64,000 bases of DNA. Origin: an uncultured Gammaproteobacteria bacterium (GTDB taxonomy: Bacteria; Patescibacteriota; Microgenomatia; Levybacterales; GWA1-39-11). The first letter of the stretch is position 1; every line of letters begins with the position of its first letter. The position numbers and the translations under genes were made by a program. The stretch lies in the NCBI GenBank assembly GCA_964627245.1, contig CAZVGS010000004.1, forward strand, positions 22,806 through 86,805, read 5' to 3'. Below the pieces are notes generated by a model. It made no database searches. It had not been told where the DNA came from and saw only the letters and a list, made by a program, of their open reading frames with translations. Below are positions 4,215 through 56,066 of the stretch, piece after piece.

Positions 4215-4691
4215 TTATCTTGTAACTGAAATTACTGCGCCTCCTTCAGCATCTGGAGCTGTTACAGTTACTCTTCCTGCTGCTGTCTGAAGAATTTCAT
4301 ATTGTGTGTCATAGTCTTCGCATCCATCTCCATCACCATCAACATCCCAAGCTCCTGTTTGTGGATCTACAGGTAGTTGTGCGATATATTGAGGGGCAAT
4401 ATCCGGACATAGGTCTACATCTCCACCGACTGTATCACTTCCAATATTTGTTGCTGTTGCCGGAATTGCTAGCGGCGTTAAATCACCATTATTATCGACT
4501 GCAAATTGCCATACACCGTTGAGGATAGCATTAACATCGCTTGCCCTTTGGGTGTTATTGGCTTGTTCAAATTGTCTTGCAGGATTTATGGCGATAAGAG
4601 TAATGGCAAGAAGGACAGCTAAGATTCCAATAACAACAAGAAGCTCAATAAGTGTAAACCCTTTTTGGAATTTAGCGCGGGCAGTTTTCAT
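4215..4691 (-). CDS. type IV pilin (prepilin with N-terminal methylation motif, C-terminal disulfide loop)
   Basis: N-terminus KGFTLIELLVVIGILAVLLAI (class III signal, Glu at +5). Two Cys near the C-terminus form the D-region. Confidence 0.85.
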   Translation of the reverse strand: MKTARAKFQKGFTLIELLVVIGILAVLLAITLIAINPARQFEQANNTQRASDVNAILNGVWQFAVDNNGDLTPLAIPATATNIGSDTVGGDVDLCPDIAPQYIAQLPVDPQTGAWDVDGDGDGCEDYDTQYEILQTAAGRVTVTAPDAEGGAVISVTR

Positions 4692-4762
4692 ATCTATTTA
4701 ATGATAACCATAATTAAAAAACCTTGTCAATAGGCAAATTTTGCCTCAAATACAACTCATGA

Positions 4763-5452
4763 TCACATTCGAAGAAGCATTATTCCAAGAATAGCAAAAA
4801 GAACAATAAAAATTCCCAACATAGTATAAAGTCTAACGTTTGGTTTTTTTGATTGTGTAGCACCTTTTTTATCTGGAAAATTTTGTGTTACTGTTTTAGT
4901 TCTTTCTACTGGAATCATATTAAATTGCTTTAGGTGATCGGTGCGCTTTAGAAGTTGTGATGCATTTTCGGTCGTCAAATTTCTTATTAAGCCTTGATCT
5001 TGTCCAAGCATCTGGTAAGGAATTACCCAGTCAATTGAGAAAAAGCACTTCTCGAATCCTAGTTTTAGTTCCCTGTATACATCATAGTTGGCTGCTATCA
5101 CTTTGACGTCTTTTTCAATTGTGTACTCTTTTGATAATGCGCTCTCGAATGGGACAGTATCCAAAAATTTATCAACCTCTTCCTTCAAATCTTCCCGGCT
5201 AAGATTCATAAAATCCTTTTCAAAAGTTATGTTGGGGGAGAGAAGCATTGTTATAGATGCAGGAGCTAATTGATATTGGTCTACAAAACTTTTTATCTGA
5301 TTTATCAGTGAAGCACCATTTATGACATCCATGTCTCTGACTGAAGTTGAGAGGAATGCAAGGCTTACGACAAGAGTTAGACCTGTTTCGTAAAAATAAA
5401 ATCCATTTTTATCCAGATACAAAAATCCTGGTTGTTTTTTTACAAAATCCAT
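4763..5452 (-). CDS. hypothetical tail-anchored membrane protein inside the pilus operon (possible pilus assembly accessory protein)
   Basis: C-terminal TM segment (LYTMLGIFIVLFAILGIMLL). Sits between pilin genes on the same strand. No recognisable motif. Confidence 0.45.
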   Translation of the reverse strand: MDFVKKQPGFLYLDKNGFYFYETGLTLVVSLAFLSTSVRDMDVINGASLINQIKSFVDQYQLAPASITMLLSPNITFEKDFMNLSREDLKEEVDKFLDTVPFESALSKEYTIEKDVKVIAANYDVYRELKLGFEKCFFSIDWVIPYQMLGQDQGLIRNLTTENASQLLKRTDHLKQFNMIPVERTKTVTQNFPDKKGATQSKKPNVRLYTMLGIFIVLFAILGIMLLRM

Positions 5453-5533
5453 ATTATGAAAATTTCTAAGTACTGTAATTTCTAATTAATCTAGGTTTAT
5501 AAATCAGGTCAATTAGGTTAATTAGTAATTTAT

Positions 5534-5905
5534 TCATATCTCCTTCCATGAAGTAGCAGTTAGAGTGTTATTACTCGTATCAACTATTACTTGTATTGTT
5601 CTTGTAAAATTATTGACGGTACCTTTTGATATAACCGTTTTTGGATTAGTTCCGTTAACAGTTATGACTGCTTCTCCATTCTCAATCGTAAGAGTCTCGC
5701 CACTATAATCCGGATCTCTTAGTAATTTAATCATAGCAGTTTCTGCGCCACTTTCCGCAATGTTTAATGAGTTTGAGCCTTGATAAACTTTATCTGTTCC
5801 TGTCGAACTGTTTATAACAAGAGCTATCGACGCAGTTGTAACAACGACCGCAATGACCATATATATAAGTAAAATTACCAGTGTTTGGCCTTTTTGTTTT
5901 CTCAT
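5534..5905 (-). CDS. minor pilin-like protein (degenerate prepilin N-terminus)
   Basis: N-terminus KGQTLVILLIYMVIAVVV resembles a prepilin leader plus hydrophobic helix but lacks Glu+5. 4-nt overlap with the upstream pilin gene. Confidence 0.5.
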   Translation of the reverse strand: MRKQKGQTLVILLIYMVIAVVVTTASIALVINSSTGTDKVYQGSNSLNIAESGAETAMIKLLRDPDYSGETLTIENGEAVITVNGTNPKTVISKGTVNNFTRTIQVIVDTSNNTLTATSWKEI

Positions 5906-6417
5906 CTTAAGCCTGCTGTTGTTTGAAAATTTTGTTCGTCGGCAATTCCTTCTTTTCTGATATTTCCGGAAATCGTAAAATTTATTCTGACGGTATCTTT
6001 TGCACTATCTGTTCCTACTTTCGTAAAAACCAAATCTGAGATAGATGATCCATAGCCGTTAAGATTGAACGTGCCACTTGGATTTGATGTCACTAAGTTC
6101 CCGCTGCTTGTTGAATATGTATGATTTTCGCCATTAATAACGAGTACCAAATTCGCTGAAGAACTGCCGAATAACGCAGGTTCAATTATTGAATCGGCTC
6201 TTCCGACATCATATATAAAGCGCGAATATATATATCTTCCATCATCGGCTACATTTGATGTATTTGTAGAACTTAGCTGATTTTCTATTATTGCAATAAA
6301 TATCTGCGTGAATATTACGATAAGAATTGTTAGAAGACCCATATATATAAGAAGTTCGACTAAAGTAAATCCCGATTGACTCTTAGCGGATGGATTGGAT
6401 TTATGTTCTTTCATCAT
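5902..6417 (-). CDS. minor (pseudo)pilin with prepilin-type N-terminal cleavage/methylation motif
   Basis: SGFTLVELLIYMGLLTILIVIF motif. ATGA overlap with the giant pilin-like gene. Confidence 0.8.
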   Translation of the reverse strand: MMKEHKSNPSAKSQSGFTLVELLIYMGLLTILIVIFTQIFIAIIENQLSSTNTSNVADDGRYIYSRFIYDVGRADSIIEPALFGSSSANLVLVINGENHTYSTSSGNLVTSNPSGTFNLNGYGSSISDLVFTKVGTDSAKDTVRINFTISGNIRKEGIADEQNFQTTAGLR

Positions 6418-9383
6418 GGCGAGTAGTTAAATGAAGTATCCAGTATTGTTGGCGTAACATTATTGTCGGTTGTCGAGAAAAACGCTTTGTATTTGACGCA
6501 CTGTGCCGGATTCTGAAATCCTGAAACACCGCTTAAAGGTATGCTTCCTCCTGTTGATGGAAAGCGAGTCGTGTTGGTGCCGTCGGGTCCTACAAAAGTG
6601 TAGGTTGAATTACTGCAAGACCCGCTAACAGGCAAGGTTGCTGCAACTTGAAACTCAAGAGTAGTGTTAGCAGGAGTTGTTGAGTTAACGCTCAGTCTGT
6701 TCAAAGCAACAACTGAGCCCAAATCTTGAATTGCAGATTCGTACGTCCCGGAGCTTAGATATGTACCATCAGGACCTCCTTGTATAATTTGAAGTTCGTT
6801 ATCGGCAGTGTTTCCTATCATATAAACGAATCTGTCTCCATCCAGTTCGGAAACCGACGTAAGATCATTAAATCCCGAGTCAAATTGAACTCCACCGCAG
6901 TAAGTTGGTGTCAACTCGTTACTTGTATTCAGTACTTGGTACTCGCGTGTATTATTTGAGTCAGATGTTCCGTCTTTTCCTACAAGAACAGCACGAAGAC
7001 CTTCAAAAACTGTAAGTGATCTCCGGGGGAACAGTTGGGCATCAGCACCGCTTCCATAGTAAAAGCCGCTTGTAGGTCCCGTTGAAGGACTTCCTGATAG
7101 AAATGACGGCGAATTTTTGTTGGAAGTATTTAGAATGTAAAATTGCATGCTATCAGGATCATTGTCATTGTTTGAGTCAATGCCGCCGTTTGAGGAAATA
7201 TAAGCTCTAGTTCCATCGCCAGTTCCATAAACCGAATTTGCTGCTTCTTCAGTTCCTGAATCGGAATTAAAATCATATGAGCTTATCCTTTTCCAATTAC
7301 TATTTCCGCCCGATATCCTTCCGCAAGCGCTGTCGCTGATAGCGGGGGAGGATGATGTCGTTGGAATGTCGGTAACGTTAACGATGTTAAATTCGGGATT
7401 TGTTCCGGCACCAACCGCAACATAAACATACGTATCAGTTCCAACCCTGACAGGATAAATGTCGTTGCTTGCATAAAGCTCTATATTTCCTCCATCAGAA
7501 CAATCAAGGTGTACAGGGGAAGTTGTATCAGACCAGCTTGTCCCCGTCTGGCCTTGGCTATATTTTCTATCAGTACCTGAACCCGGATTGCAGTCATAAC
7601 CGTCAAGCTGGATTCTACAGCCTATCATATCCAGTCCTTGCGAGGTTGTTTTGCCGTCAATGTTTGACAGATCAAAAACGTAAAGATAACCCCCCGAAGT
7701 TACGTACCCGCGGTCATTTAATACCGCAAGAGAAGTGCCCCCGTATCCGAAAGGCGCTTGGTCGTTGAGATCTCCCCCGCTGTAATGTATTTTGACAGCT
7801 GCCCAGTCGAGATAGAAATCCCGGGATGTACTGCTTGCAACATTAACAACTCTGAGCCTAAAGTTGGAATTGCTTAAGTCGCTTTCAGACCAACTGTGTC
7901 CCCAGTCATCAGAAGATCCACCGAGAGTGTAGGATGCTTCCGAGGTAGAGAGAGTAGGCGTTGATTGGGCATTTGTCCAGGTGTTTCCGCCATCCCAAGA
8001 TAGTTCAACGCACATTCTCGGGGAGTTTGAGGTACTGTCTACCCGAGCGTCAAGCCTTACTTCAATTCCCTCTATTGATGCACCCGAGGGAACAGGCAAG
8101 TTGTAATTGTAGTATCTGTGCTTATCCTTATCAGTCCCCGTGCAATTTGTTCCTGTGCCGTTACCGCTATTGCTGTCTATAGCAAAAGACCCGTTATCGG
8201 TATAGCCTCTATTCGCATTTGACTGAAAGCCATCATTATCTCCGCCATTGTCGTCAGTATTAGAACTTGGATTTTGAAATCCCGTATCGTGAGATCCGGC
8301 AGTATTGAACATGTTTGTATTGAAGAAAGTCTTGTATTTATAGATTCCGTTAATATAGTCTTGGTACTCGCCGTTATTAGTAGTGTCGTTACTGCCGTTA
8401 TTATCATCCACAAGTACTGCAATTACTTCGCGGTCAGCTTTTGAAGTTGCAATGAGAGCGTACATATTTTCAGAAGATGATCTGTAATATTGAATTGCAT
8501 TCGTTTTGTAATTATTGTCAATGCCGGGGCTCGTTGGAACCAGTCCGGGGTCGCTGTACTTTGCCGGATCAAGTGTAAATATGCCTCTAAGCGAAGGTGA
8601 GGGAATTTCCGTATCCGCAGTGACAAGTATATGCGACATTTTCACGGATGTTGAATCGGTGGGAGAAGTAGCAACAAAAGTCTGATTTGGGGTAGCAATG
8701 CTTGTAGCACTTGCAGTTGCAATGACTGCGACGGGAGGACCATCGGGAAGAGAAATTGTTGCAGAGGAAAAAGCAGGGGAGCACCATTGTCCTTTAGTGT
8801 TTGTAGATAGCCTTACTTCTCCGCCGGTTGCATCAGCAACTTCGGTAGTTGCGTAAATTCCCTCGTCAAAATCCTCAACGCTTGTTTGGGTTTGCGCTTC
8901 ATTTGCAAGATAGCGTGTAACGTATATAGTTGAATCAACAGAAGAATTATAGGGCTGACCCCAGGTAACACTTATATCAACGCGTTTTGTTGACGGATCA
9001 AGGCTTCCTCCTGTTTCGACGACAACTCCATTTGAGTCCCGGTAAACATCGCTTACAGTTATGCTTCTTGTAAAATCATTTATGGTTTCATCACCTGAAG
9101 CAAGGGACCAAGACGTGCCGGAAATTTGCGGGTGATAATCTCCATTCACAGCAAATATTCCCCATCCCTGATTTCTCACATTTCTCACAACTTCCTCTGC
9201 TTCTTTCATAAGAGCGATTGCCTGAACCCTTTGTCCTTGCTGTGCCTTGCCTTGTTTTGAGGAAATGAGTCCTGTCAGCAAAGCAGGCAGCATAATTGCC
9301 GTTATTGCTATTACTAACAATATCTCAACAAGCATTTGACCCCTGCTATTTTTGATTTTATTCGAAATTGGTAACTGTGCCAT
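6414..9383 (-). CDS. giant (989 aa) prepilin-like protein, S/T/N/G/D-rich; candidate pilus-tip adhesin / PilY1-analogous minor pilin
   Basis: N-terminus RGQMLVEILLVIAITAIMLPALL has Gly, a hydrophobic helix and Glu+5. The long remainder is low in hydrophobic residues and rich in Ser/Thr/Asn/Gly/Asp. Embedded in the pilB-pilC-pilin operon. Confidence 0.7.
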   Translation of the reverse strand: MAQLPISNKIKNSRGQMLVEILLVIAITAIMLPALLTGLISSKQGKAQQGQRVQAIALMKEAEEVVRNVRNQGWGIFAVNGDYHPQISGTSWSLASGDETINDFTRSITVSDVYRDSNGVVVETGGSLDPSTKRVDISVTWGQPYNSSVDSTIYVTRYLANEAQTQTSVEDFDEGIYATTEVADATGGEVRLSTNTKGQWCSPAFSSATISLPDGPPVAVIATASATSIATPNQTFVATSPTDSTSVKMSHILVTADTEIPSPSLRGIFTLDPAKYSDPGLVPTSPGIDNNYKTNAIQYYRSSSENMYALIATSKADREVIAVLVDDNNGSNDTTNNGEYQDYINGIYKYKTFFNTNMFNTAGSHDTGFQNPSSNTDDNGGDNDGFQSNANRGYTDNGSFAIDSNSGNGTGTNCTGTDKDKHRYYNYNLPVPSGASIEGIEVRLDARVDSTSNSPRMCVELSWDGGNTWTNAQSTPTLSTSEASYTLGGSSDDWGHSWSESDLSNSNFRLRVVNVASSTSRDFYLDWAAVKIHYSGGDLNDQAPFGYGGTSLAVLNDRGYVTSGGYLYVFDLSNIDGKTTSQGLDMIGCRIQLDGYDCNPGSGTDRKYSQGQTGTSWSDTTSPVHLDCSDGGNIELYASNDIYPVRVGTDTYVYVAVGAGTNPEFNIVNVTDIPTTSSSPAISDSACGRISGGNSNWKRISSYDFNSDSGTEEAANSVYGTGDGTRAYISSNGGIDSNNDNDPDSMQFYILNTSNKNSPSFLSGSPSTGPTSGFYYGSGADAQLFPRRSLTVFEGLRAVLVGKDGTSDSNNTREYQVLNTSNELTPTYCGGVQFDSGFNDLTSVSELDGDRFVYMIGNTADNELQIIQGGPDGTYLSSGTYESAIQDLGSVVALNRLSVNSTTPANTTLEFQVAATLPVSGSCSNSTYTFVGPDGTNTTRFPSTGGSIPLSGVSGFQNPAQCVKYKAFFSTTDNNVTPTILDTSFNYSP

Positions 9384-9846
9384 ATTTGTTAAGAGTAATA
9401 GTCTCGGTTGATCCGCTTGGAATATTTGTGATGGTTATAGAATTTGAACCGTCAATAAAATTTACTACCTCACCGCTATCTGACGCGAAAAGAACCGCAT
9501 CATTTTGAAATGTGGAGGAAAGACTGTATGACTCAGGAATCGGAACTGAAAAATTCGCCGTATCCGCCGGATTGTACTCTATACCATGAAACATTATATA
9601 TTGATCTGATAGGACTTTTATGCCGTAGTTGTCAGGTTCTCCCCGTCCTTCGGTGTCTCCAACCATAGCCTTTATTTGCTGAGTTTTGAGATCCGATATA
9701 AGGACAGTTGTTGCGGAACTGCTGGTTGCCACAATTTGTATATTTGACAAACTCACAATTCCTATTCCAAAAAGAAGAGACAATATTCCTATAACGAGCA
9801 TAAGCTCGATCAGCGTAAGTCCTCTTTGTCTTTCAAGTGCTTTCAT
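9358..9846 (-). CDS. type IV pilin / pseudopilin (prepilin N-terminal motif)
   Basis: RGLTLIELMLVIGILSLLFGIGIV motif. Sits directly downstream of pilC. Confidence 0.8.
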   Translation of the reverse strand: MKALERQRGLTLIELMLVIGILSLLFGIGIVSLSNIQIVATSSSATTVLISDLKTQQIKAMVGDTEGRGEPDNYGIKVLSDQYIMFHGIEYNPADTANFSVPIPESYSLSSTFQNDAVLFASDSGEVVNFIDGSNSITITNIPSGSTETITLNKYGTVTNFE

Positions 9847-10917
9847 CTAGCGTATACCAACCTGACCTATTAGACCGTAAATAGGTGCAATGATTGAGAG
9901 CATCATCCCTCCTACAAGTACGCCAACAAAAATAAGCATAATTGGTTCAAGAAGAGTAGTTAATGTCTTTAAGGTTTTGTCAACTTGATAGTCTAAATAT
10001 TCAGCTACATCTTTCATTGACTTATCAAGAGAACCGCTTTTTTCTCCTGCTTCCGTAATTTTTATCATAATACTCGGGAATACATCCTTGGCCTGCTTAA
10101 GTCCTTCGGATAGTTCGCTTCCTGCAAGAACAACCTCTTTGCAATGGAGAATAGATTTGGCAACGTCTTTTTTTAGGACTACATCCTGGGCAAGTTCAAG
10201 AGCTGCGGCAATCGGTATTCCGGCATTGAGCAGTAAATACAGGCTTCTGGCAAATCTTGTTATATCAATTTGCGTTGCCAATGTTGAAACAAGTGGAAGC
10301 ATAAATAAGAAATGCAAAAATTCCCTTTTTTTCTCCCTATACAAAACAAAAATTAAAACTGCAGTTATGACTGTCCCTAGAGCAACAAAAAGTGTGTAGT
10401 TTGTTACTAGTTGTGACAAACCGATCAGCATCTTGGTCGGTAAAGGCAGGTCTGCGTTAAGGCGTAAAAATACGTTTGATATTTTTGGCACAACAACTAT
10501 TAGTATCATAAGAAGTACTCCGGCAAAAACAAACATGATAAGTACAGGATATGTTAGCGCGCCTTTTATTTTATCTGTGAATTCGGAATCTTTTTTTATT
10601 GAAGATTTAAGATCTTCCAGGGTTACATCTAGAGTTCCCGCTTCTTCAGAAGCTTTTATGAGATTGACAGTTATATTGTCAAAGATTCTGGGAAATTTGG
10701 CGAAAGCATCCGCGACGTGATTTCCTTGAGAGAGATCTGCTTTTAACGATTCCAAAAATCGCCTCTGGTTGCCTTTGGCGTCTTCCAAAAGTGAATCAAC
10801 TACTTCAAGAATCGGAATTCCTGCAGCAAGCATAGTTGCAAGGTTGCTGACAAGACCAAGTTTGTCTGCAGTAGATATCCTTAATTTTTTTGGATCCGAG
10901 CTATTGAATAACTGCAT
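9847..10917 (-). CDS. pilC: type IV pilus assembly platform protein PilC (GspF family)
   Basis: Polytopic membrane protein with the duplicated GspF-type cytoplasmic domains. Lies immediately after pilB with a 5-nt gap. Confidence 0.85.
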   Translation of the reverse strand: MQLFNSSDPKKLRISTADKLGLVSNLATMLAAGIPILEVVDSLLEDAKGNQRRFLESLKADLSQGNHVADAFAKFPRIFDNITVNLIKASEEAGTLDVTLEDLKSSIKKDSEFTDKIKGALTYPVLIMFVFAGVLLMILIVVVPKISNVFLRLNADLPLPTKMLIGLSQLVTNYTLFVALGTVITAVLIFVLYREKKREFLHFLFMLPLVSTLATQIDITRFARSLYLLLNAGIPIAAALELAQDVVLKKDVAKSILHCKEVVLAGSELSEGLKQAKDVFPSIMIKITEAGEKSGSLDKSMKDVAEYLDYQVDKTLKTLTTLLEPIMLIFVGVLVGGMMLSIIAPIYGLIGQVGIR

Positions 10918-10922
10918 AGATA

Positions 10923-12611
10923 TTAAAGACTTTCAACTTTTGTCACGCGAAGGACTTCTTCAAGCGTGGTTACACCGCGCGCAACTTTATCCATACCATC
11001 GGCAAGCATTGTCGTCATTCCCTCCTCAACAGCTTTTTTTGCAATAACATCTGAGTCATTTTTAGCTGTAATAAGAGCTCTTACTTCTTTAGTTACTTCC
11101 AGAACTTCAAAAAGACCAAGCCTGCCGGAATATCCTGTCGAGTGGCAAATTTTGCACCCTTTACCTCTATAGAGCTTAATGCTTTCACTTTGACCGAAGT
11201 GATGCGTGATTACCGCAGGGGGTAAATTTTTTGCAAGGTCTGATCTTAGTATGGAATAAGACATTTTACACATGTCGCAAATTTTCCTGATAAGTCTTTG
11301 TGCGACAATAACATTGACGGTTGATGCGACAAGGAAAGGTTCAACTTTCATATCTATCAGACGGGGAAGAGCAGTTGCAGCATCATTTGTATGGAGCGTT
11401 GACAATACCAAATGTCCTGTCAAAGCTGCATTAACGGCGATGCCTGCGGTTTCGCTGTCTCTTATTTCTCCCACAAAAACAACATTCGGATCCTGCCGGA
11501 GTATGGAGCGCAGGCCATTTGCGAAAGTAAGGTCTGTTTTTTGGTTTACGTTGATTTGATTGACTCCTTTAATTCTATATTCCACTGGGTCTTCGATTGT
11601 TGTAATGTTTTTTTCCCTTGTATTTAGAATTTTAAGAATAGCGTAAATTGAAGTAGTTTTTCCGCTGCCTGTCGGGCCTGTTGAGAGAACCATGCCGTAG
11701 GATTTTGTGTATGCATTCGTTACTTTTTTAAGATCGCTTTCGCTCATCCCCAAGTCAATTAAGGAAAATTGTCTGAAGTGTGATGCAAGAAGTCTTAAAA
11801 CCGCTTTTTCTCCATCGGCAATCGGTAAGACAGAAACCCTGATATCCAAATTCTCTTCTTCAAGTTTTATGCGCATCTTTCCATCCTGAGGACTTAGATG
11901 TTCATCAGTCCTTAATTTAGACAAAATTTTTATTCTTGAGATGATTCTTTCGTGAAAGTTTTTTGGAAGGTACAAAACATCATGCAGTATCCCGTCGATC
12001 CTAAATCTTACAAGCGAGTCTTTTTCTTCAGGTTCTATATGAATGTCCGAGACCTTATCTTGATAACCGAATTCAACTAGAAGGTTCACAATTTTTTCAA
12101 TCGGGGCTGCATCAGTAACCTTTGATATATCAGAAATTCCCAGCTCTCTTTGAAGCAATTGTTCGAATGATCTTTGAAGATCGCGTTTGTATATCCTTAA
12201 AATATTTTCGATATCGCGTTCGGTAGTAAGATAGGGAATAACTTTTAGACTTGATTTTTTGCTTATGCCCGTTAGTACCTCTATTTTTCTGGGATCAACT
12301 ATTGCAACCTTGAGTCCCTGTTGGGTTCTTTCAAAAGGTATAACCTTGTGTTTTCTTGCAATTTTTTCGGGAACAATTCTAAAAACGTCTTCCGGTATGG
12401 AAATCTTGGAAAGTACAACGAATGGAATATGGAGGAAATCAGCAATAAGTATTCCCAGATTCTCGTCCGAAATCACATCTTTCTCGATCAACGCGTCGGC
12501 GAGTGTTACATTGGAGTTTTTTGCAAATTCTGCCAGTTCTTGAAGATCACGCTCAGTGGCAAGACCTGTTTTTAGAATTAATGCTCTGATCTGATCATCA
12601 GCTAGAACCAT
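10923..12611 (-). CDS. pilB: type IV pilus assembly ATPase PilB (GspE family)
   Basis: GspE N-domain. Walker A LSTGPTGSGKTTS. Asp box VGEIRD. His box. Tetracysteine Zn motif CDMC...CKIC. Confidence 0.9.
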   Translation of the reverse strand: MVLADDQIRALILKTGLATERDLQELAEFAKNSNVTLADALIEKDVISDENLGILIADFLHIPFVVLSKISIPEDVFRIVPEKIARKHKVIPFERTQQGLKVAIVDPRKIEVLTGISKKSSLKVIPYLTTERDIENILRIYKRDLQRSFEQLLQRELGISDISKVTDAAPIEKIVNLLVEFGYQDKVSDIHIEPEEKDSLVRFRIDGILHDVLYLPKNFHERIISRIKILSKLRTDEHLSPQDGKMRIKLEEENLDIRVSVLPIADGEKAVLRLLASHFRQFSLIDLGMSESDLKKVTNAYTKSYGMVLSTGPTGSGKTTSIYAILKILNTREKNITTIEDPVEYRIKGVNQINVNQKTDLTFANGLRSILRQDPNVVFVGEIRDSETAGIAVNAALTGHLVLSTLHTNDAATALPRLIDMKVEPFLVASTVNVIVAQRLIRKICDMCKMSYSILRSDLAKNLPPAVITHHFGQSESIKLYRGKGCKICHSTGYSGRLGLFEVLEVTKEVRALITAKNDSDVIAKKAVEEGMTTMLADGMDKVARGVTTLEEVLRVTKVESL

Positions 12612-29270: not shown

Positions 29271-29359
29271 ACATATATATTAACATTTAATATTAACATT
29301 GAAGGACACTTCTTAAAACTCTATTTTTCAAATAATGCTATAACGCCTCTTGACACAGT

Positions 29360-30202
29360 TTGATGCGTTTGCTAATATCCACAATTACAACTGCCCCGTT
29401 ACTCGGGGCATTTTTTGTAAATATGACAACACAAAATCAAATAACAGCGTCAAAAAAAGTTGCGCTAACTCTCACCCTTCCGACAATAAATTTTTCGGCA
29501 CTTGCTGTAAAAACCAAAGTTCTTTTATCAAATATTTACAGACCGCTTTCCCAGAATGCCTCAAAAACCGTAAGTGAAGCTTCCTCAAAAGCAAGAAGTT
29601 TTAAGCTTCCAAATCTTAAGGACAAATTCAAATTTAACAAAAGGAGTATCAAATTTATTTTTCCTGCTGTAATTGGGATAGTTATAATTATTTCAATTGT
29701 TTCAATAGTAAGATCGTTTCCTGATGCTCAAAGCAGACCGGTTAATGATAGCAAAGACGTATCCCAAAATGCATTGACAACAATAAATTTGGATAGAAAA
29801 TTCGCTTTTCCATTAAAAGATGAAAACGGTAAAGAGGTAGGGAAATTTGATTATATTATCCAGACATCACAGCTTCAGAGCCAAATTATTGTAAAAGGAC
29901 AAAGAGCAACCGCAATTGACGGAAAGGTTTTTCTAATCCTAAATCTTAAAATAACAAATAATTTAGAACAAACAATACAGCTTAATACTCGAGACTATCT
30001 AAGGTTTATTGTTAAAAGCAATGAAAATGAGCAGTTAGCGCCTGATATTCACAATGATCCTGTCGAAGTTCAGGCAATTTCGACAAAATACACAAGAGTC
30101 GGTATTACAATAGATGAGGTAGATGCTAAAAAACTAATTCAACTTAAGGTTGGTGAAATTGGAGGAGAAAAGCAGAATATTGATCTTAATTTTAAGTACT
30201 AA
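29360..30202 (+). CDS. hypothetical single-pass membrane protein with extracytoplasmic beta-rich domain (DUF4352-like?)
   Basis: TM FIFPAVIGIVIIISIVSIV. C-terminal domain loosely resembles DUF4352. The start codon is uncertain (29360 or 29423). Confidence 0.45.
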   Translation: MMRLLISTITTAPLLGAFFVNMTTQNQITASKKVALTLTLPTINFSALAVKTKVLLSNIYRPLSQNASKTVSEASSKARSFKLPNLKDKFKFNKRSIKFIFPAVIGIVIIISIVSIVRSFPDAQSRPVNDSKDVSQNALTTINLDRKFAFPLKDENGKEVGKFDYIIQTSQLQSQIIVKGQRATAIDGKVFLILNLKITNNLEQTIQLNTRDYLRFIVKSNENEQLAPDIHNDPVEVQAISTKYTRVGITIDEVDAKKLIQLKVGEIGGEKQNIDLNFKY

Positions 30203-30238: not shown

Positions 30239-30439
30239 ATGGCACAAAGTACGCAAAAAAAAATTCCGCAACACCTGCTTTCCGAAATTAAAGATGCGTT
30301 GGAAAGTGTCAAATTTGGAAGTATCGAAATCTTCGTTCAAAATAGTGTTGTTACGCAAATTACAGTTAGAAATATCCACAAGACAAGCGTTGAAATAGAA
30401 AAAAGCTCAAATATAGAAAATACAATTAAAGCAATATAG
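30239..30439 (+). CDS. small YezD/DUF2292-like protein
   Basis: LSEIKDALESVKFGSIEIFVQNSVVTQITVRNIHKTS matches the YGSVxIxIQDGxVVQIE-type signature of DUF2292. Assignment is from memory. Confidence 0.5.
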   Translation: MAQSTQKKIPQHLLSEIKDALESVKFGSIEIFVQNSVVTQITVRNIHKTSVEIEKSSNIENTIKAI

Positions 30440-30467: not shown

Positions 30468-30496
30468 TTGACAGTAATCTATATATATTATATAAG
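30468..30496 (+). promoter_or_regulatory. sigma70-type promoter (TTGACA-N17-TATAAG) upstream of the first repeat-protein gene
   Basis: TTGACA at 30468-30473. 17-nt spacer. TATAAG at 30491-30496. Confidence 0.5.
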
Positions 30497-30522
30497 TTAG
30501 ACAAATCGAAAGAGCTGACCGC

Positions 30523-30578
30523 AAACGGAGGCTTCTTCACACAATTTAGTTTTGTGTGCGGAAGTCTCCGTTTTTTTG
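30523..30578 (+). promoter_or_regulatory. long leader hairpin followed by U-tract (intrinsic-terminator/attenuator-like) between the promoter and the start codon of repeat-protein gene 1
   Basis: AACGGAGGCTTC (30524-30535) pairs with GAAGTCTCCGTT (30561-30572), with one G-U wobble. The loop contains an inner CACACAA/TTGTGTG stem. TTTTTTT follows. Confidence 0.55.
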
Positions 30579-30666
30579 TTTCTTGGGGCTACCGGAAATA
30601 AAAATAGGCGGGAGAGATGAAGTGCTCTTGAAAAAGAAATCTTATACAAAAGGAGGTGAAATAAAT

Positions 30667-31887
30667 ATGACAAATTTCAAAAAACAAATCGTTTCAGCAG
30701 CAGCAGCAGGAGCTATGCTTCTTAATGTAGCAGTTCCAGCGTTCGCTTCTACTGAAATCGTAATTTCAGGAAATGGTGCAGATTCTTCTAACTGGTCAAC
30801 AGTTAGCCAATCAAACACCAATTCCGTTACACAAAATAACTCAGCAAACGTTACCAATAATGTAGACGCAGATGCATCAACTGGTGGCAATGACGCTAAC
30901 TTCAATACTGGAGGAGACGTTAATGTTGACACTGGAGATGCGACAACTGACGTTAAGGTTGCCAATGCTCTTAATAGCAATTCTGCAGATGTAGATTGCT
31001 GTGGAGCAGGTAATACTGACGTTGAAATTTCCGGAAACGGAGCAGATTCTGTAAATGGAGTTTCCGTTGGATCTTCCAACACAACTTCTGTTTCTCAGAA
31101 CAATAAAGCAAACGTCAAAAACAATATTGATACGGATGCTAAGACTGGTTACAACGATGCAAATTCCAATACTGGAGGAGACGTTACTGTCAATACCGGA
31201 ATTGCAAAAGCTAGCGCTACTGTTGCTACAATAGCTAACGTTAACTCAGCAAAAGTTGGAGGAGGACTTGGTTTATCTAACCCTTCTGCAAAATTTGTAA
31301 TCTCAGGAAATGGAGCAAATTCAAATAACTCCATTCAAGCAGGACTCACAAATGTTACCGCCGTAGAGCAAGATAACAGTGCTCATGTTAAGAATAACGT
31401 TGATGCAGATGCATCAACTGGTGGTAATGACGCTAACTTTAACACCGGAGGAGAAGTAACTATCGACACCGGAGATGCGACAACTGATGTTGACGTTGCT
31501 AACGCCGTTAACTTCAACCACGCAGATGTTGATTGCGGGTGTCTTATGGATGTCCTTGCAAAAGTCGCCGGAAACGGAGCTGATACAAAAAACATCATTA
31601 CTTTAGGTCTTGCTAATGTGCAATCAATGGCACAGGACAACGGAGCTTGCCTATACAACGATGTAGATGGAGAAGCAAAGACCGGTGATAATGACGCGAA
31701 CTCCAACACTGGAGAAGCTGATACTGATCCAACTGTTAACACCGGAAACGCTACATCAAATACTGATGTAGAAAATGAAGGTAATGTTAATAATGTTGGT
31801 GGACTTTTCAGCATGCCTGAAATGCCTGATGTCGATTTCGACTTCAGTTTTGCATTTCTTTGGGCTTGGTTTGGAATGTCAGTTTAA
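30667..31887 (+). CDS. secreted tandem-repeat protein, paralogue 1 (four ~90-aa N/T/G/D-rich repeats with Cys pairs; hydrophobic C-terminus)
   Basis: SD AAAGGAGGTGA 8 nt upstream of the ATG at 30667. Signal peptide MTNFKKQIVSAAAAGAMLLNVAVPAFA. Repeats share ISGNGADS...NVTNNVDADASTGGNDANFNTGGDV..DTGDATTDV...DCC/DCGC. The ORF-track start at 30556 is an upstream extension. Confidence 0.75.
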   Translation: MTNFKKQIVSAAAAGAMLLNVAVPAFASTEIVISGNGADSSNWSTVSQSNTNSVTQNNSANVTNNVDADASTGGNDANFNTGGDVNVDTGDATTDVKVANALNSNSADVDCCGAGNTDVEISGNGADSVNGVSVGSSNTTSVSQNNKANVKNNIDTDAKTGYNDANSNTGGDVTVNTGIAKASATVATIANVNSAKVGGGLGLSNPSAKFVISGNGANSNNSIQAGLTNVTAVEQDNSAHVKNNVDADASTGGNDANFNTGGEVTIDTGDATTDVDVANAVNFNHADVDCGCLMDVLAKVAGNGADTKNIITLGLANVQSMAQDNGACLYNDVDGEAKTGDNDANSNTGEADTDPTVNTGNATSNTDVENEGNVNNVGGLFSMPEMPDVDFDFSFAFLWAWFGMSV

Positions 31888-32012
31888 TTTGGTTAATGTA
31901 GGGTGAATTGCTAGCACTTCGGCAGGACACCCTACAACCAAAATAGGAATAGATAGAAGATAAAAAATATAGAAAACAATTTAATAATAGGACAATTAAA
32001 AAATAAATAATT

Positions 32013-35353: not shown

Positions 35354-35376
35354 AAAAACCCCGAAAGGGGTTTTTT
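35354..35376 (+). terminator. rho-independent terminator after the LPATG protein gene
   Basis: AAAAACCCC GAAA GGGGTTTTTT hairpin with a U-tract. Confidence 0.75.
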
Positions 35377-36734: not shown

Positions 36735-36798
36735 TTATTTCACCCCCTTTCAATTGAAATCTGCCTGCCAAATTTCTTTTGGAATTAGTATCACCGCA

Positions 36799-36828
36799 CA
36801 AAAAAACCCTTCGACAAGCTCAGGGTTT
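36799..36828 (-). promoter_or_regulatory. hairpin + U-tract in the 5' leader (minus strand) of paralogue 4; attenuator/terminator-like
   Basis: On the minus strand AAACCCT-N11-AGGGTTT is followed by TTTTTTT. It lies ~70 nt upstream of the start codon at 36734. Confidence 0.45.
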
Positions 36829-37059
36829 ATAAGTGTTTGTAAGTTGTTACTAACATAGGCAGTTCAAAAGTATTTATTGCCTCATCTGGCTTACGCTCAT
36901 AATCGGCAGTTCAAAAAAACAACGGAATTAATTCTGTGGGGGCAAGAAACCATGTTCATTATATGATTTGCATTGCCAGACCTGTCAAGACTAACAATCT
37001 ATATACAATTGTTTGTTAAGATATCATACGAAAGAAGTAAGAGATTTAGCCTATATTCC

Positions 37060-37089
37060 TTGACTTCTAAGGCTAATTTCTGCTAAAAT
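37060..37089 (+). promoter_or_regulatory. sigma70-type promoter (TTGACT-N18-TAAAAT) ending 8 nt before the nusA ATG (leaderless or near-leaderless mRNA)
   Basis: TTGACT at 37060-37065. TAAAAT at 37084-37089. ATG at 37098. Confidence 0.45.
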
Positions 37090-37097
37090 AGATAGCA

Positions 37098-38171
37098 ATG
37101 GTGGAAGCAAGACTTGCCACCATTTTTTGTACAATGCCGGCAATACAAAGAAGCGAGTTTGCTCTCGCACTTAACCAAATAGCTCAGGAAAGGGCTGTTG
37201 ATCCCGAAATTATTCTTGAGAGTATAAAGTCTGCGATTTTAGCAGCTTATAAAAAAGACCATGTCGCACCTCATGTAGAGGAAGTAAGTGAGGAAGAGGC
37301 TGAAAAAGAAGCCGAAAAATATGGCGCAGAGATAAATCCGAATACCGGTGAGACAAAGATTGTATACGACGGGAAAGATGTAACTCCTCCCGGGTTTGGC
37401 CGGATAGCAACCCAAACAGCCAAGCAGGTATTACTCCAAAAAATACGGGAACGCGAAAAAGATGCGATCATGGCCGAATACACCAAAAGAATAGGGACGG
37501 TTGTAAATGGTATGATACTGCGTTTTGCAGGGAGTGCAATAGTAGTTGATATTGGAAAAGCTGAAGCAATTATTCCCCAAAATCATAGAATTCAGAATGA
37601 AAATTATTATCTGAATAAAAAAATCGCTGTCTACATTGTTGAAATTGCAGATGATGAAAAGCGTGGCCGGGAAATAATTGTATCAAGAACCCACAATGGA
37701 CTTTTAGAAGGACTTTTCAGAAGGGAAGTACCGGAAGTTGCATCTGGCAGTGTTGTTATTAAGGAAATAATGCGTGAGCCGGGGTCAAGAGCAAAGATTG
37801 CTGTTACCTCTGATCAGTCAGGCATAGATCCTGTCGGTTCATGTGTAGGACAAAAAGGAGTAAGGATCCAGGCAGTAATTGATGCTGTAGACGGACTTGA
37901 AAAAATTGATGTAATCCAATGGAGCGGAGACCCGGTCCGTTATATAACAAACGCTTTGTCTCCGGCAAAAAATCTTACTATCGAAATAAAAGAAAAGGAC
38001 AAGGTGGCTGTAGTCAAAGCCCCTAAGGAAGAACTACCGTTAATAATTGGAAAAGAAGGACAAAATGTAAGGCTTGCGTCAAAGCTTACTGGATACAGTA
38101 TAGATGTTGAAGGAATTGAAACGCCTGTCGAGGAGGCAAAAGCTTCACCTGACAAAAAAAATGAAGCTTAA
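37098..38171 (+). CDS. nusA: transcription termination/antitermination factor NusA
   Basis: N-terminal NusA domain (IAQERAVDPEIILESIKSAILAAYKK), S1 domain, two KH domains. No C-terminal acidic repeats. Confidence 0.85.
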   Translation: MVEARLATIFCTMPAIQRSEFALALNQIAQERAVDPEIILESIKSAILAAYKKDHVAPHVEEVSEEEAEKEAEKYGAEINPNTGETKIVYDGKDVTPPGFGRIATQTAKQVLLQKIREREKDAIMAEYTKRIGTVVNGMILRFAGSAIVVDIGKAEAIIPQNHRIQNENYYLNKKIAVYIVEIADDEKRGREIIVSRTHNGLLEGLFRREVPEVASGSVVIKEIMREPGSRAKIAVTSDQSGIDPVGSCVGQKGVRIQAVIDAVDGLEKIDVIQWSGDPVRYITNALSPAKNLTIEIKEKDKVAVVKAPKEELPLIIGKEGQNVRLASKLTGYSIDVEGIETPVEEAKASPDKKNEA

Positions 38172-46113: not shown

Positions 46114-46240
46114 GTGGCGGGTCCTGTCTCAGCCCGTCCCATTTGCGCGCCGTCTCGCCCGCTCTGCTTACAAAAAAATATTGTTCGTTTGCTCGAGATG
46201 TTCAATGGGACCCTGGACTGAGCCACCCGCATTGGTTTTG
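46114..46240 (+). ncRNA. GC-rich structured element (candidate small RNA, rnj leader element or strong terminator) between Lon-like gene and rnj
   Basis: About 65% GC in a ~37% GC genome. 5' GGTGGCGGGTCC pairs with 3' GGGACCC...GCCACC. The interior is AT-rich. No convincing ORF. Confidence 0.35.
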
Positions 46241-46280
46241 AGATTTGAGTTGTGAGTTTTATGCAATATAATTAAGTCAA

Positions 46281-47960
46281 ATGGAAAGTAATAATAATGC
46301 AAGTCCGCTTAACTCCGTAACGGTTCTGCCGTTAGGAGGTATAGGGTCGGTTACCAAGAATATGTATTTATATATTTTTGGCAACGAAATACTAATCGTC
46401 GATTGTGGAATGGGTTTTCCCGATGCCAATACACCCGGTGTAGACTTTCTAATTCCTGACATAACGCATCTTAAGAAATTGGTTACGCAAGGCAAAAAAA
46501 TTGTGGGTCTTTTACTTACTCACGGGCACGAAGATCATATAGGAGGCGTTCCTTTCGTTCTTGACCAGCTCCCAAGTTTTCCTATATATGCAACCCCCCT
46601 GACAGCGGCATTTACAAATGAAAAATTGAAAGATTTTGGGCTTAATCAGCGGGTTGTTGAGGTTAAATTCAAGAAGGATTTTAGGCTTGGTGCATTTATG
46701 GTCCGATTTTTGCATATCACGCATAGTGTCATGGATACTTCAAATATTTTTATAAAAACCCCTGTTGGTAACTTTTATCACGGCAGTGACTATAAATTTG
46801 ACCTAACACCTCCCGATGATAAGCCGACAGATATGCATGGGATAGCAGAAACAGCACGAGAGGGAGTAATGTGCATGATGTCTGACTGCCTGGGAGCAGA
46901 ACGCGAAGGGCATAGTAAATCCGAGCGAAAAATTACCGATAAATTTGAAGAAGAGATGAGAAGGTCTAAGGGAAAGGTTTTTATAAGTACCTATTCTTCA
47001 AATATTTCACGCATGAACCAAGCCATCGAGGCCGCAATAAAATTTAATAGAAAAGTGTGCTTTATGGGAAGATCTTTTGCAAAGGCGAGGGATATCGGTA
47101 GGCAATTGGGGTATATGAAACTGCCTCAAAATATGGAAATAAAGTCCCAGCAGGCAGGATCAATGGATCCGTCAAAAGTAATGATCTTAATTCCCGGGAG
47201 TCAGGCACAAGAAGAGTCTGCTCTTGTCAGAGTTGCAAATGATAATGACCGGGATCTTAGAATTGAGAAAAACGACACTGTTATTTTTTCAGCGGATCCA
47301 ATACCCGGGAATGAAGTAAATATTTATAGTCTGATTGATACTATTTCAAAAAAAGGCGCCCGTGTTATACATTCCGACATGTCAGATGAATTTCATGTGT
47401 CAGGTCATGGATCTCAAAATGACATAAAACTTCTTGCAACTTTGACAAGACCAAGATACGCATTTCCAATAGGCGGAAATTACCGTCACATGCTGGCGTT
47501 CAAAGGATTGATGAGGGACCTTGGAATGCGTGAGCAGGATATAGTTCTTCCTGAATACGGACAGGAAGTCGTTTTTTTCAAAGGCTCTTTCCGCTATGGA
47601 GCAAAAATTCCTTTGGCAACTGTTTATGTAGATGAGATAACAGGCGAGGAGATGGAAAAATTTGTGCTTTTGGACCGCCAAAAGATAGTAAAAGAAGGAA
47701 TAATGATAATTATGGTTGAGGTAGAGGCTGATAGTGGAAAGATTGTTGAGAAGCCTGATGTTATTGTCAGAGGCGTTGCTTTTCCCGAGAAGGATGGGTT
47801 TGTTGAAAAGTTGGGTAGTGAGTTGAGCCGAAGCATGTCTCAAAAGAGTGGTAGGGCCAATTCTGCTCTTTACAGAAAGACTATCCAAAGAACGGCAGAA
47901 AATCTTTTGTACAAAATGAAGCGCGAACCCCTAGTTATCCCTGTTGTTATTGAAGTGTAG
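46281..47960 (+). CDS. rnj: ribonuclease J (metallo-beta-lactamase / beta-CASP RNase)
   Basis: LLTHGHEDHIGGVPF motif. Beta-CASP motifs. C-terminal domain. 559 aa. Confidence 0.9.
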   Translation: MESNNNASPLNSVTVLPLGGIGSVTKNMYLYIFGNEILIVDCGMGFPDANTPGVDFLIPDITHLKKLVTQGKKIVGLLLTHGHEDHIGGVPFVLDQLPSFPIYATPLTAAFTNEKLKDFGLNQRVVEVKFKKDFRLGAFMVRFLHITHSVMDTSNIFIKTPVGNFYHGSDYKFDLTPPDDKPTDMHGIAETAREGVMCMMSDCLGAEREGHSKSERKITDKFEEEMRRSKGKVFISTYSSNISRMNQAIEAAIKFNRKVCFMGRSFAKARDIGRQLGYMKLPQNMEIKSQQAGSMDPSKVMILIPGSQAQEESALVRVANDNDRDLRIEKNDTVIFSADPIPGNEVNIYSLIDTISKKGARVIHSDMSDEFHVSGHGSQNDIKLLATLTRPRYAFPIGGNYRHMLAFKGLMRDLGMREQDIVLPEYGQEVVFFKGSFRYGAKIPLATVYVDEITGEEMEKFVLLDRQKIVKEGIMIIMVEVEADSGKIVEKPDVIVRGVAFPEKDGFVEKLGSELSRSMSQKSGRANSALYRKTIQRTAENLLYKMKREPLVIPVVIEV

Positions 47961-55199: not shown

Positions 55200-55271
55200 T
55201 TGCAGGTTGAAGAATTTTATTACATGAATTATAGTTATTAAAACTGCTTTGAGCAGTTTTTTTGTATAAAA

Positions 55272-56066
55272 ATGAATTTCACCGATAAGCTGAAAAAAAA
55301 GTGGGATCAAAAGAAATTTGTAAGTATAGGTCTTGATCCGGTTGTTGAAAAACTTCCAAAAGGTGTAAAGAGTTTTTTTGAATTCAATAAAGAAATAATT
55401 GACGCAACATATGACCAGGTTGCGGTCTACAAGCCAAATTCGGCATTTTATGAAGCTGAGGGGGCAAAGGGAATTGAAGAACTAAAAAAAACTACGGACT
55501 ACATAAATAAAAAATATCCCGATAATTTTATACTTTTGGATGCAAAAAGGGCAGATATTGGAAACACAAATAAAGGTTATGTTAAGTATGCATTTGAATA
55601 TTTAGGAGCTGATGCTATAACAGTCCATCCGTATTTAGGACAAGATGCAATAGAGCCCTTTACTCTAAACAAAAATAAAGGTATTTTTGTATTGTGCAGA
55701 ACCTCAAATCCGGGAGCTTCTGAATTCCAGGACTTAGAAGTAAGGGGCGTAACTCTTTATGAGAAAGTAGCTTTTCAATCTGTCAGAAAATGGAATACAA
55801 ATGATAACGTAGGTTTGGTGGTCGGAGCAACATATCCAATAGAATTATCTAAAATCAGAAAGATAGCAAAAGACATACCAATTTTAATTCCAGGCATAGG
55901 AGCTCAGGGCGGAGATTTGGAGGAGTCAGTTAAGGCTGTTGAGAAGAACTTTATAATTAGTGCTTCAAGAAGTATAATTTTCGCGTCGGGTGGTCCCGAT
56001 TTTGCGCAAGCGGCAAGAGCAGAAGTTATCAGGCTTTCTGATGAGATAATCAAACATATTAAATGA
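55272..56066 (+). CDS. pyrF: orotidine 5'-phosphate decarboxylase (type 2)
   Basis: LDAKRADIGNT signature. Confidence 0.85.
   Translation: MNFTDKLKKKWDQKKFVSIGLDPVVEKLPKGVKSFFEFNKEIIDATYDQVAVYKPNSAFYEAEGAKGIEELKKTTDYINKKYPDNFILLDAKRADIGNTNKGYVKYAFEYLGADAITVHPYLGQDAIEPFTLNKNKGIFVLCRTSNPGASEFQDLEVRGVTLYEKVAFQSVRKWNTNDNVGLVVGATYPIELSKIRKIAKDIPILIPGIGAQGGDLEESVKAVEKNFIISASRSIIFASGGPDFAQAARAEVIRLSDEIIKHIK

Follow-up and report, generated by a model that had tools for sequence, protein, structure and literature searches.

Introduction

In riboswitch and T-box platforms, and in the conditional 5′-UTR terminators mapped by term-seq, an intrinsic terminator located between the promoter and the start codon serves as the decision point for expression of the downstream genes. 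In RAT leaders, which are the targets of BglG/SacY/LicT-type antiterminators, the 5′ arm of the terminator is overlapped by a short, conserved hairpin that is imperfect and contains an internal loop. Stabilisers of the STAB-SD or 5′ stem-loop type are found on crystal-protein and S-layer mRNAs. Passage of a NusA-dependent terminator in the leader of the Bacillus velezensis dfn operon, which is subject to antitermination by the NusG paralogue LoaP, depends on a small hairpin (PMC12691694). The hbs mRNA of B. subtilis features pairing between its 5′ and 3′ UTRs, which modulates cleavage by RNase Y (PMC5737220).

Here we compare these systems with the leader of a surface-protein operon of Microgenomates, which is contained in a 64-kb stretch of DNA (hereafter referred to as the window). 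In the literature that we searched, neither this leader nor regulatory RNA in Microgenomates was described.

Results

A promoter-proximal hairpin and U-tract in the gene-1 leader

The operon is preceded on the plus strand by p280, encoding a single-pass membrane protein whose true start, as judged from homologue comparison, is probably ATG 29423, and by a gene for a DUF2292 (yezD-like) protein of 66 amino acids (30239–30439, plus strand). Gene 1 encodes a protein of 406 amino acids with a signal peptide and SGNG...TGGN repeats, and is followed by gene 2 (738 amino acids), gene 3 (371 amino acids), a sortase gene, the convergent paralogue 4 and nusA-infB. Sequence searches of genes 1–3, p280 and paralogue 4 against Pfam, NCBIfam and PDB gave no significant family apart from that of the sortase, for which class C/D is the nearest. 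Gene 3 had a weak, sub-threshold NCBIfam match to the EF0750_LPXTG family (E = 0.0011, below the cut-off), and the AF2 model of paralogue 4 (pLDDT 46) was unusable. The interval between the DUF2292 gene and gene 1 contains the following features, all on the plus strand.

30468–30496, plus strand: sigma-70-type promoter, with the −35 element TTGACA (30468–30473), a 17-nt spacer and the −10 element TATAAG (30491–30496)
30513–30533, plus strand: conserved 5′ box AGCUGACCGCAAACGGAGGCU, which overlaps the 5′ arm of the terminator and occurs once in the window
30523–30573, plus strand: terminator hairpin P2, 21 bp with one U·C mismatch, −32 kcal/mol
30571–30577, plus strand: U-tract, T7, followed by GTTTC
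30574–30603, plus strand: hairpin P3, in which the U-tract extension UUUUGUUUCUUGG pairs with CCGGAAAUAAAA
30607–30612, plus strand: purine-rich motif GGCGGG (family consensus RGGCRG), downstream of the terminator and, by eye, recurring in most leaders
30619–30626, plus strand: motif GAAGUGCU, present as RAGUGY in 26 of 28 leaders
30626–30637, plus strand: small hairpin P4, directly 3′ of GAAGUG, weak here (4 bp) and 5–10 bp long elsewhere
30650–30669, plus strand: strong Shine-Dalgarno sequence AAGGAGGTGA / AAGGAGGUGA (30650–30659) and the gene-1 ATG (30667–30669)

The first-pass annotation of this DNA had described a promoter of the form TTGACA-N17-TATAAG, a 12-bp stem with one G-U pair, an inner stem and a T7 run, and every one of these elements is present in the sequence. 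The outer stem of P2, AACGGAGGCUUC / GAAGUCUCCGUU, has 12 bp including the G-U pair; the inner stem, CACACAA/UUGUGUG, has 7 bp, and three A-U pairs extend the hairpin to 30523–30573. Its base, CGGAGGC/GUCUCCG, is directly followed by U7, so that the element combines the stable GC-rich stem and the U-tract of an intrinsic terminator. The hairpin is located about 90 nt upstream of the gene-1 ATG and 84 nt downstream of the DUF2292 stop codon, on the same strand. The 176-nt leader has a predicted folding energy of −53.4 kcal/mol, as compared with −35.7 ± 3.6 kcal/mol for dinucleotide shuffles (z = −4.9; 0 of 200 shuffles as low), and a scan of all T-runs identified the gene-1 leader hairpin as the strongest intergenic hairpin-plus-U-tract of the 64-kb window. 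The Shine-Dalgarno/ATG span reported earlier (30655–30669) correctly ends on the G of the ATG, and the full Shine-Dalgarno sequence extends over 30650–30659. Rfam 15 gave no match in the window at the gathering score, and only noise for the segment 30200–30800 at E ≤ 10.

Inspection by eye revealed no second sigma-70-like promoter (a TTGACA/TATAAT-like pair) between the U-tract and the ATG at any locus. The gene-1 mRNA must therefore come from polymerases that pass the hairpin.

Conservation of the leader and covariation of the terminator helix

Homologous loci were collected from several sources. A scan of the genome collection with the gene-1 protein gave 18 loci from Patescibacteria/Microgenomates MAGs (42–61% identity); 14 further loci, including Levybacteria, came from contigs encoding homologues of p280, a protein with roughly 1,300 homologue loci. 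A search of 18 related loci against Rfam gave no match. A metagenome pattern scan with GCTGRCCGNNNACGGAGG returned 120 stretches, two of which (L079 and L124) were true leaders, the rest being chance matches in high-GC contigs. The comparative set consisted of 29 homologous leaders, each belonging to one conserved gene cluster. The gene order p280, DUF2292, intergenic leader, gene 1, gene 2 and gene 3 is common to the homologous loci.

The comparison agrees with the earlier proposal of a hairpin located within a leader that has a promoter of its own. The leader element is clearly conserved: it is carried by 29 of 29 loci, always in the DUF2292-to-gene-1 interval and with one copy per locus. 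In 28 of the 29, a perfect TTGACA, a 16–18-nt spacer and a TATAAT-like −10 element are found 13–79 nt upstream of the box. A promoter score of at least 10.5 out of 12 was reached by 79% of these, as against 1.4% of random 136-nt stretches. From 5′ to 3′, the common layout comprises the promoter, the box GCUGACCGYNNACGGAGGC, the long hairpin, GCCUCCG with U4–8, a variable hairpin segment, RGGCRG, RAGUGY with a hairpin, GGAGGUGA and the ATG. The U4–U8 run directly follows the stem in all leaders, and the Shine-Dalgarno form GGAGGUGA or GGGGGUGA is likewise kept in all of them, while the apical part of the long hairpin varies with lineage. Conservation covers the box and 150 nt of the leader downstream of it, but not the flanking intergenic DNA.

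The terminator helix covaries in the related genomes. In alignment A1, 91.8% of the P2 cells were paired and compensatory changes were found in 8 of the 22 pairs; double-change cells numbered 36, as compared with 10.1 ± 2.6 in shuffles (0/500). On 25 leaders aligned with the covariance model, 93.1% of the cells were paired and 45 double-change cells were counted, against 11.5 in shuffles (0/500). As a control, sliding of the P2 partner in the same 25 leaders lowered the pairing to 37–58%. The covariance model, R1, found exactly one copy per locus with scores of 49–89 bits, or 20–34 bits in the two-terminator loci L007 and L010, and a single copy (30508–30582) in the 64-kb window. Two tandem terminators follow one box in three loci.

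The read-through part of the leader

P3 should form in read-through RNA only, because the U-tract extension is one of its strands. RNAalifold on nine leaders of the main subfamily gave three pairs with compensatory changes between the U-tract and a downstream A-rich segment; in other subfamilies, this position is occupied by a different hairpin. Further downstream, in most of the 26 leaders with RAGUGY, P4 begins 5–8 nt from the first base of this motif (mean z = −1.5 against shuffles), and its stem sequences are mutually unrelated.

Two other readings of this region were considered and rejected. A leader peptide encoded by AUG AAG UGC UCU UGA was discarded, as the start codon is not conserved, being ACG or UAG elsewhere. 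A boxA-like reading of GUGCUCUUGAAAAA was also discarded, as GAAGUG alone is conserved.

The 5′ box and its potential hairpin

The 19-nt box is near-invariant across loci whose gene-1 proteins are 42–81% identical. In the form GCUGACCGYNNACGGAGG, it is kept in all leaders except the divergent L001, L012, L016 and L148, with L010 being one base off. Its 3′ half forms the 5′ arm of the long covarying hairpin, whereas its 5′ half, GCUGACCG, stays single-stranded when the terminator forms. L007, L010 and L018, in which the first terminator is built from arms other than CCUCCG and a second terminator-like hairpin follows, retain the entire box. Since the 5′ half is unpaired and the box survives in these three loci, the pattern of conservation argues that more than pairing within the terminator stem constrains the box.

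The box can also fold alone, as a 21-nt hairpin AGCU-GA-CCG-CAAA-CGG-A-GGCU with a predicted energy of −7.1 kcal/mol, which would take up 11 nt of the terminator 5′ arm. Such a mini-hairpin is possible in all leaders (98% of the cells are compatible), with the loops CAAA, CCAA, UAAA, UACA, AGAA and CUCA, and is much weaker than the terminator (−7 versus −32 kcal/mol). No covariation of the mini-hairpin was seen in A1 (16 sequences), a result that is uninformative because the stem is invariant; its outer pair is changed from A-U to U-A in L010, which constitutes one compensatory change. Neither the operon nor the window contained a conserved site complementary to the box. The helix P1, by which RNAalifold joined the box to the GGCRG motif further downstream, was rejected, its duplex energies being close to those of shuffles (mean z = −0.1).

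A stem-loop after gene 1 complementary to the leader

A second structured element follows the gene-1 coding region.

31888–31942, plus strand: stem-loop right after the gene-1 stop codon, −25.5 kcal/mol, without a U-tract; apical loop AGCACUUC at 31913–31920

This stem-loop is present in 25 of the 25 loci that include the gene-1 end, and 9 of its 14 pairs show compensatory changes. The loop sequence CACUUC is invariant in the 19 aligned loci and is found in 24 of those 25. In the window, the loop AGCACUUC is the exact complement, over 8 nt, of the leader motif GAAGUGCU (30619–30626). Of all positions in the leader, it is the RAGUGY motif that gives the loop its best duplex in 23 of the 25 loci (−8 to −13 kcal/mol), and the loop-leader duplex had p ≤ 0.05 against shuffled loops in 17 of the 25. 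The pairing of GAAGUGCU with AGCACUUC holds in 83% of the cells, as compared with 27–40% when the partner is slid and 80.9% in shuffles, the latter control being not significant because the core is invariant. L150 has UACACUUC opposite GAAGUGUA, representing two compensatory changes; where only one side of the 7-bp core has changed, wobble pairs are retained, L004 and L009 being the exceptions; and L148 has neither the leader motif nor the loop motif. We put at about even the chance that this complementarity, identified by sequence comparison, represents a real 5′-3′ contact in the mRNA.

The candidate contact resembles that of hbs in that a highly expressed gene with a strong Shine-Dalgarno sequence and a structured 5′ UTR features long-range pairing between the 5′ UTR and a 3′ region (PMC5737220). 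As in an hbs-like arrangement, complementary segments in the 5′ UTR and after the stop codon are kept across species. It differs from the 14-bp hbs pairing in having 8 nt, contributed by a single-stranded motif and a hairpin loop, and in the position of the 3′ partner between two cistrons, ahead of gene 2 (PMC5737220).

Leaders of paralogue 4 and other genes

Paralogue 4, encoded on the minus strand, has a leader with a hairpin of its own.

36800–36988, minus strand: paralogue-4 leader, with the −35 element TTGACA (36988–36983), CATATAAT (36965–36958), two CUGCC boxes, a hairpin and U7
36764–36769, minus strand: GGCAGG, downstream of the hairpin and invariant in four of four leaders

The hairpin AAACCCU/AGGGUUU (36828–36804) and the U7 run (36806–36800, minus strand) lie 66 nt before the ATG at 36734. 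On its own the hairpin is weak (−8.2 kcal/mol, z = −0.8), and its fold energies across the leaders range from −8.2 to −16 kcal/mol. The promoter, the hairpin position and TTTTTTTGT are kept in three orthologous paralogue-4 loci (L153–L155), and the stem shows compensatory changes (AAACCCU/AGGGUUU, GCCCUAC/GUAGGGU and AACAGCC/GGCUGUU). These orthologues also keep the nusA-divergent promoter (TCTTGAC...CATATAAT, invariant), the two CUGCC boxes, U7-GU and the Shine-Dalgarno sequence. The earlier suggestion that two members of the gene family carry terminator-like leaders thus stands as far as the conserved promoter, hairpin and U7 of paralogue 4 are concerned, but the two leaders are separate motifs: R1 did not match the paralogue-4 leader, which we therefore regard as analogous to that of gene 1 rather than as a member of the same family. 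A sigma-54-like reading of TGGCAG-N5-TTTCA in the paralogue-4 leader was rejected, as the −12 GC is not conserved. So was a 5′-3′ contact between GGCAGG and the loop of the 3′ terminator of this gene; the loops are not conserved and none is complementary.

A conserved promoter-hairpin-U-run arrangement is also found in the leader of p280 (29350–29416, CUGCCCCG...CGGGGCA), 6 nt before the AUG and without a Shine-Dalgarno sequence. The nusA leader has the same layout, also conserved, with a hairpin (37099–37122) and U6 located 5 nt before ATG 37134, the true start, again without a Shine-Dalgarno sequence. We also observed a similar hairpin-plus-U-run element before pyrF (55272), a short distance of a few nucleotides from its AUG. 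In this lineage, hairpin-plus-U-run elements may serve a broader purpose that is not regulatory.

Ordinary genes in the window have −10 boxes 8–12 nt from the ATG and no hairpin, and canonical 3′ terminators occur as well, one example being AAAAACCCC-GAAA-GGGGUUUUUU (35354–35376), which follows gene 3. Because 3′ terminators exist here and ordinary genes lack the hairpin, the gene-1 leader hairpin appears to be special to the operon and should be recognised as a terminator.

DUF2292 and other potential trans-acting factors

The gene for the DUF2292 protein always adjoins the leader, and the protein is unusually conserved. L016 alone lacks it and L148 has its most divergent form, and the 5′ half of the box is altered in precisely these two loci, a weak correlation that has n = 2 and is confounded by phylogeny. 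Its AF2 model (pLDDT 71.6) consists of a helix, a β-hairpin and a helix; Foldseek against PDB returned nothing informative (best E = 0.69, TM < 0.42), and a literature search on DUF2292, OscA and CPR structured RNAs found nothing relevant. Among the window ORFs that were scanned, Pfam identified neither a NusG paralogue (NusG_N/KOW) nor a CAT-PRD protein. On the basis of its genomic position and co-variation with the box, DUF2292 could be considered a weak candidate for a trans-acting factor of the leader.

Discussion

The leader is best described, on present sequence comparisons, as an RNA motif that is absent from Rfam but of a known functional kind, namely attenuator-like. Our preferred reading, to which we give an even chance, is that it acts in cis, as a conserved 5′ leader RNA of the Microgenomates surface-protein operon made up of genes 1–3, and that its first module would be a promoter-proximal intrinsic terminator, that is, an attenuator. 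According to this model, the strong sigma-70-type promoter, about 20 nt upstream of the near-invariant box GCUGACCGCAAACGGAGGC, would start the leader. The polymerase would then meet the long hairpin and the U-tract, where it is predicted to stop, and the gene-1 mRNA would arise from read-through. A trans-acting factor, through recognition of the box, would determine what fraction of polymerases reads through; factor-dependent attenuation is favoured because there is no room for a metabolite aptamer. The box probably acts as the 21-nt hairpin, whose formation would exclude the bottom 11 bp of the terminator, in a mode resembling that of RAT and its antiterminator proteins or that of the small leader hairpin needed by LoaP. 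The read-through leader would contain the U-tract-absorbing hairpin, GAAGUGCU with its hairpin and the 8–10-nt Shine-Dalgarno sequence, and the contact between GAAGUGCU and the loop would most likely stabilise or process the gene-1 cistron, as in hbs. We infer the transcription start site, the termination efficiency and any conditionality from the sequence.

The box hairpin and the terminator resemble the RAT arrangement in being mutually exclusive through an overlapping 5′ arm. Unlike RAT systems, the window has no CAT-PRD protein among the ORFs scanned, and the tandem second terminators have no box. We know of no similarity between the RAT consensus and the box. The second terminators without a box, in the two-terminator loci, argue against a simple, RAT-type, non-processive mechanism. 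With riboswitch and T-box platforms, the leader shares the placement of the terminator between promoter and start codon; in contrast to them, it lacks both an aptamer and a specifier domain and matches no Rfam family, and its sensor would have to be an element of 19–21 nt. Like the STAB-SD type of stabiliser, it places a GGAGG and a stable hairpin well ahead of the start codon of a gene for an abundant, secreted structural protein, but here the GGAGG is buried in the stem, a conserved U-tract comes after the hairpin, and the hairpin lies inward of the 5′ terminus. The leader resembles the LoaP-dependent dfn leader in that a small hairpin precedes an intrinsic terminator in front of a long operon, that further terminators have to be passed in three loci, and that nusA lies next to the cluster (PMC12691694). 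The box sequence is, however, unrelated to that leader, the hairpin overlaps the terminator arm, the terminator is strong, canonical and not obviously NusA-dependent, and no NusG paralogue is present among the window ORFs scanned (PMC12691694).

We consider it possible, though on balance unlikely, that the element is constitutive and structural. The hairpin would then insulate the gene-1 promoter from p280-DUF2292 transcripts and, together with the downstream hairpins and the 3′ stem-loop, shape a very stable, processed mRNA, with any partial termination being fixed. Since no other terminator follows the DUF2292 gene, the hairpin may indeed stop upstream transcripts as well. Gene 1 shows features typical of strongly expressed structural genes, including a consensus −35 element and an 8–10-nt Shine-Dalgarno sequence, and the conserved hairpins and 5′-3′ complementarity fit a role in stability or processing (PMC5737220). 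This explanation retains its weight because hairpin-plus-U-run elements recur in other leaders of this genome (p280, nusA and pyrF). An insulator would, however, work equally well and more cheaply upstream of the promoter, yet the order of promoter and then terminator is kept in 28 of the 29 loci. A purely structural role also leaves the invariant single-stranded half of the box, GCUGACCG, unexplained, and the hairpin, 20–90 nt from the predicted 5′ end, is too far away for a classical 5′-terminal stabiliser.

A distinctly less probable explanation is that the promoter, box, hairpin and U-tract constitute a small-RNA gene of about 75 nt, in which the box is a trans-acting seed and the gene-1 mRNA arises by leaky read-through of a dual-function locus. 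A conserved promoter of its own, a conserved unpaired 5′ segment and a strong terminator are the standard anatomy of such genes, and the tandem terminators of three loci could be viewed as a back-up stop. Against it, the element always lies directly upstream of gene 1, for which no separate promoter was seen; the sequence past the U-tract is conserved, with P3 pairing with the U-tract itself; and the box has no conserved complementary target in the operon or the window.

The attenuator reading can be extended to a self-contained module, in which DUF2292 would bind the box and decide whether the terminator forms, and the read-through mRNA would be looped by GAAGUGCU:AGCACUUC; we regard this combination as improbable.

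The first-pass annotation had included a riboswitch or an RNA thermometer among the ways in which the operon might be controlled, and our results make either very improbable. The terminator does lie in the leader, but only a variable and unconserved 13–79 nt and the 19-nt box precede it, which leaves no room for an aptamer; the terminator is the only covarying helix before the read-through part in the A1 test, and no Rfam family was detected even at E ≤ 10. As to a thermometer, RNAalifold gave, in one subfamily, five invariant pairs CUC..UU : AA..GAG, joining the CUC after GAAGUG to the GAG of the Shine-Dalgarno sequence, whereas the Shine-Dalgarno sequence is mostly open in both the MFE and the centroid folds. 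Finally, the notion that the hairpin only terminates the upstream yezD-like DUF2292 gene and that the promoter match is spurious, although in keeping with the location of the hairpin 84 nt after that stop codon on the same strand, is almost certainly wrong, given the perfect and correctly spaced TTGACA between the stop codon and the hairpin in 28 of the 29 loci, the TATAAT-like variants that other loci have at the place of the TATAAG of the window, which lacks the usual final T, and the confinement of conservation to the box and the 150 nt downstream.

Patescibacteria (CPR) make up a large and mostly uncultured share of bacterial diversity. The operon resembles a major sortase-linked surface-protein operon, and proteins of this type are plausible mediators of cell-surface and host contact. 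The leader offers a defined and testable candidate attenuator with a putative 19-nt recognition box, and the 5′-3′ mRNA contact would be a candidate bacterial example conserved across MAGs labelled as Roizman-, Woese- and Levybacteria. The promoter-proximal hairpin-plus-U-tract arrangement, seen also for p280, nusA, pyrF and paralogue 4, hints at a recurrent theme. If the DUF2292 module were true, it would provide the first function for DUF2292 (the YezD/OscA family), which is a widespread family, and would be the first described riboregulatory circuit in CPR bacteria.

Variation among the gene-1 leaders

Some of the homologous loci, each numbered in its own coordinates, depart from the common form of the leader of gene 1, the surface-protein gene:

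L007 657-835, L010 2770-2900, L018 594-770: two tandem terminator-like hairpins with a single 5′ box
L002 2900-2960, L017 2900-2950: duplication of the CUAGGCGGG motif
L016 2519-3000, L148 3578-3799: leader box changed in its 5′ half

In the three leaders of the first kind, one 5′ box is followed by both hairpins; the CCUCCG arm is no longer used by the first hairpin, and the box is unchanged. The insertion in L002 and L017 is a GC-rich hairpin placed between the two copies of CUAGGCGGG. Alteration of the 5′ half of the box is confined to L016 (CCUACCGAG) and L148 (GACCGACCGC). These two loci also stand apart in their DUF2292 gene, which is missing only from L016 and most divergent in L148 (hhalign probability 96%).

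The title 'uncultured Gammaproteobacteria bacterium' is carried by many TPA MAGs that bear this Patescibacteria-type cluster (L002, L003, L006-L008 and L010-L018), and looks like an artefact of record labelling.

Conserved stem-loop 3′ of gene 1

Window 31888-31942 (loop 31913-31920): conserved, covarying stem-loop

This stem-loop directly follows the gene-1 stop codon and lacks a U-tract. Its invariant loop, AGCACUUC, is the complement of the leader motif GAAGUGCU (30619-30626), which lies ~1.3 kb upstream.

Hairpins associated with other genes

Window 29350-29425: promoter-then-hairpin layout of p280, the single-pass membrane protein gene
Window 35354-35376: canonical terminator after gene 3
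Window 37060-37136: nusA leader
Window 55232-55274: pyrF leader element

The p280 gene has its own promoter, TTGACA-N17-(TG)TAATAT, upstream of a hairpin (UGCCCCG-UUACU-CGGGGCA, 29392-29410) and U6; the AUG comes 6 nt later, without a Shine-Dalgarno sequence. This layout is kept in L139, L140, L142, L145, L146 and L151. The ORF is listed as beginning at TTG 29360, probably in error; ATG 29423 agrees with the homologues.

At nusA, a promoter-like TTGACT-N18-TAAAAT precedes a hairpin (37099-37122) and U6, with 5 nt separating them from ATG 37134. This ATG is the true start and yields a protein beginning MPAIQRSEF, like those of L154 and L155. In the orthologues the hairpin is retained despite changed sequence, and it may be a NusA autoregulatory attenuator. 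The element AAACUGCU-UUGA-GCAGUUU with its U-run, 8 nt upstream of the AUG of pyrF (OMP decarboxylase; a phosphoribosyltransferase gene is next downstream), resembles a pyrimidine-type attenuator.

Between the gene-3 terminator, AAAAACCCC-GAAA-GGGGUUUUUU, and the sortase gene there is a weak promoter-like site, so the sortase gene may be a separate transcription unit.

Gene starts and a probable second surface system

Window 4692-4762, 46114-46283 and others: near-leaderless gene starts
Window 4215-12611, minus strand: type IV pilin-type gene cluster with the N-terminal methylation motif

Many genes in the window have a -10 box just 8-12 nt before the ATG and no Shine-Dalgarno sequence, and are therefore nearly leaderless; gene 1 and paralogue 4, its convergent family member, carry Shine-Dalgarno sequences of 8-10 nt.

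The methylation motif, found in genes 4215-4691, 5902-6417 and 9358-9846, indicates that the cluster encodes a second surface-appendage system within the window.
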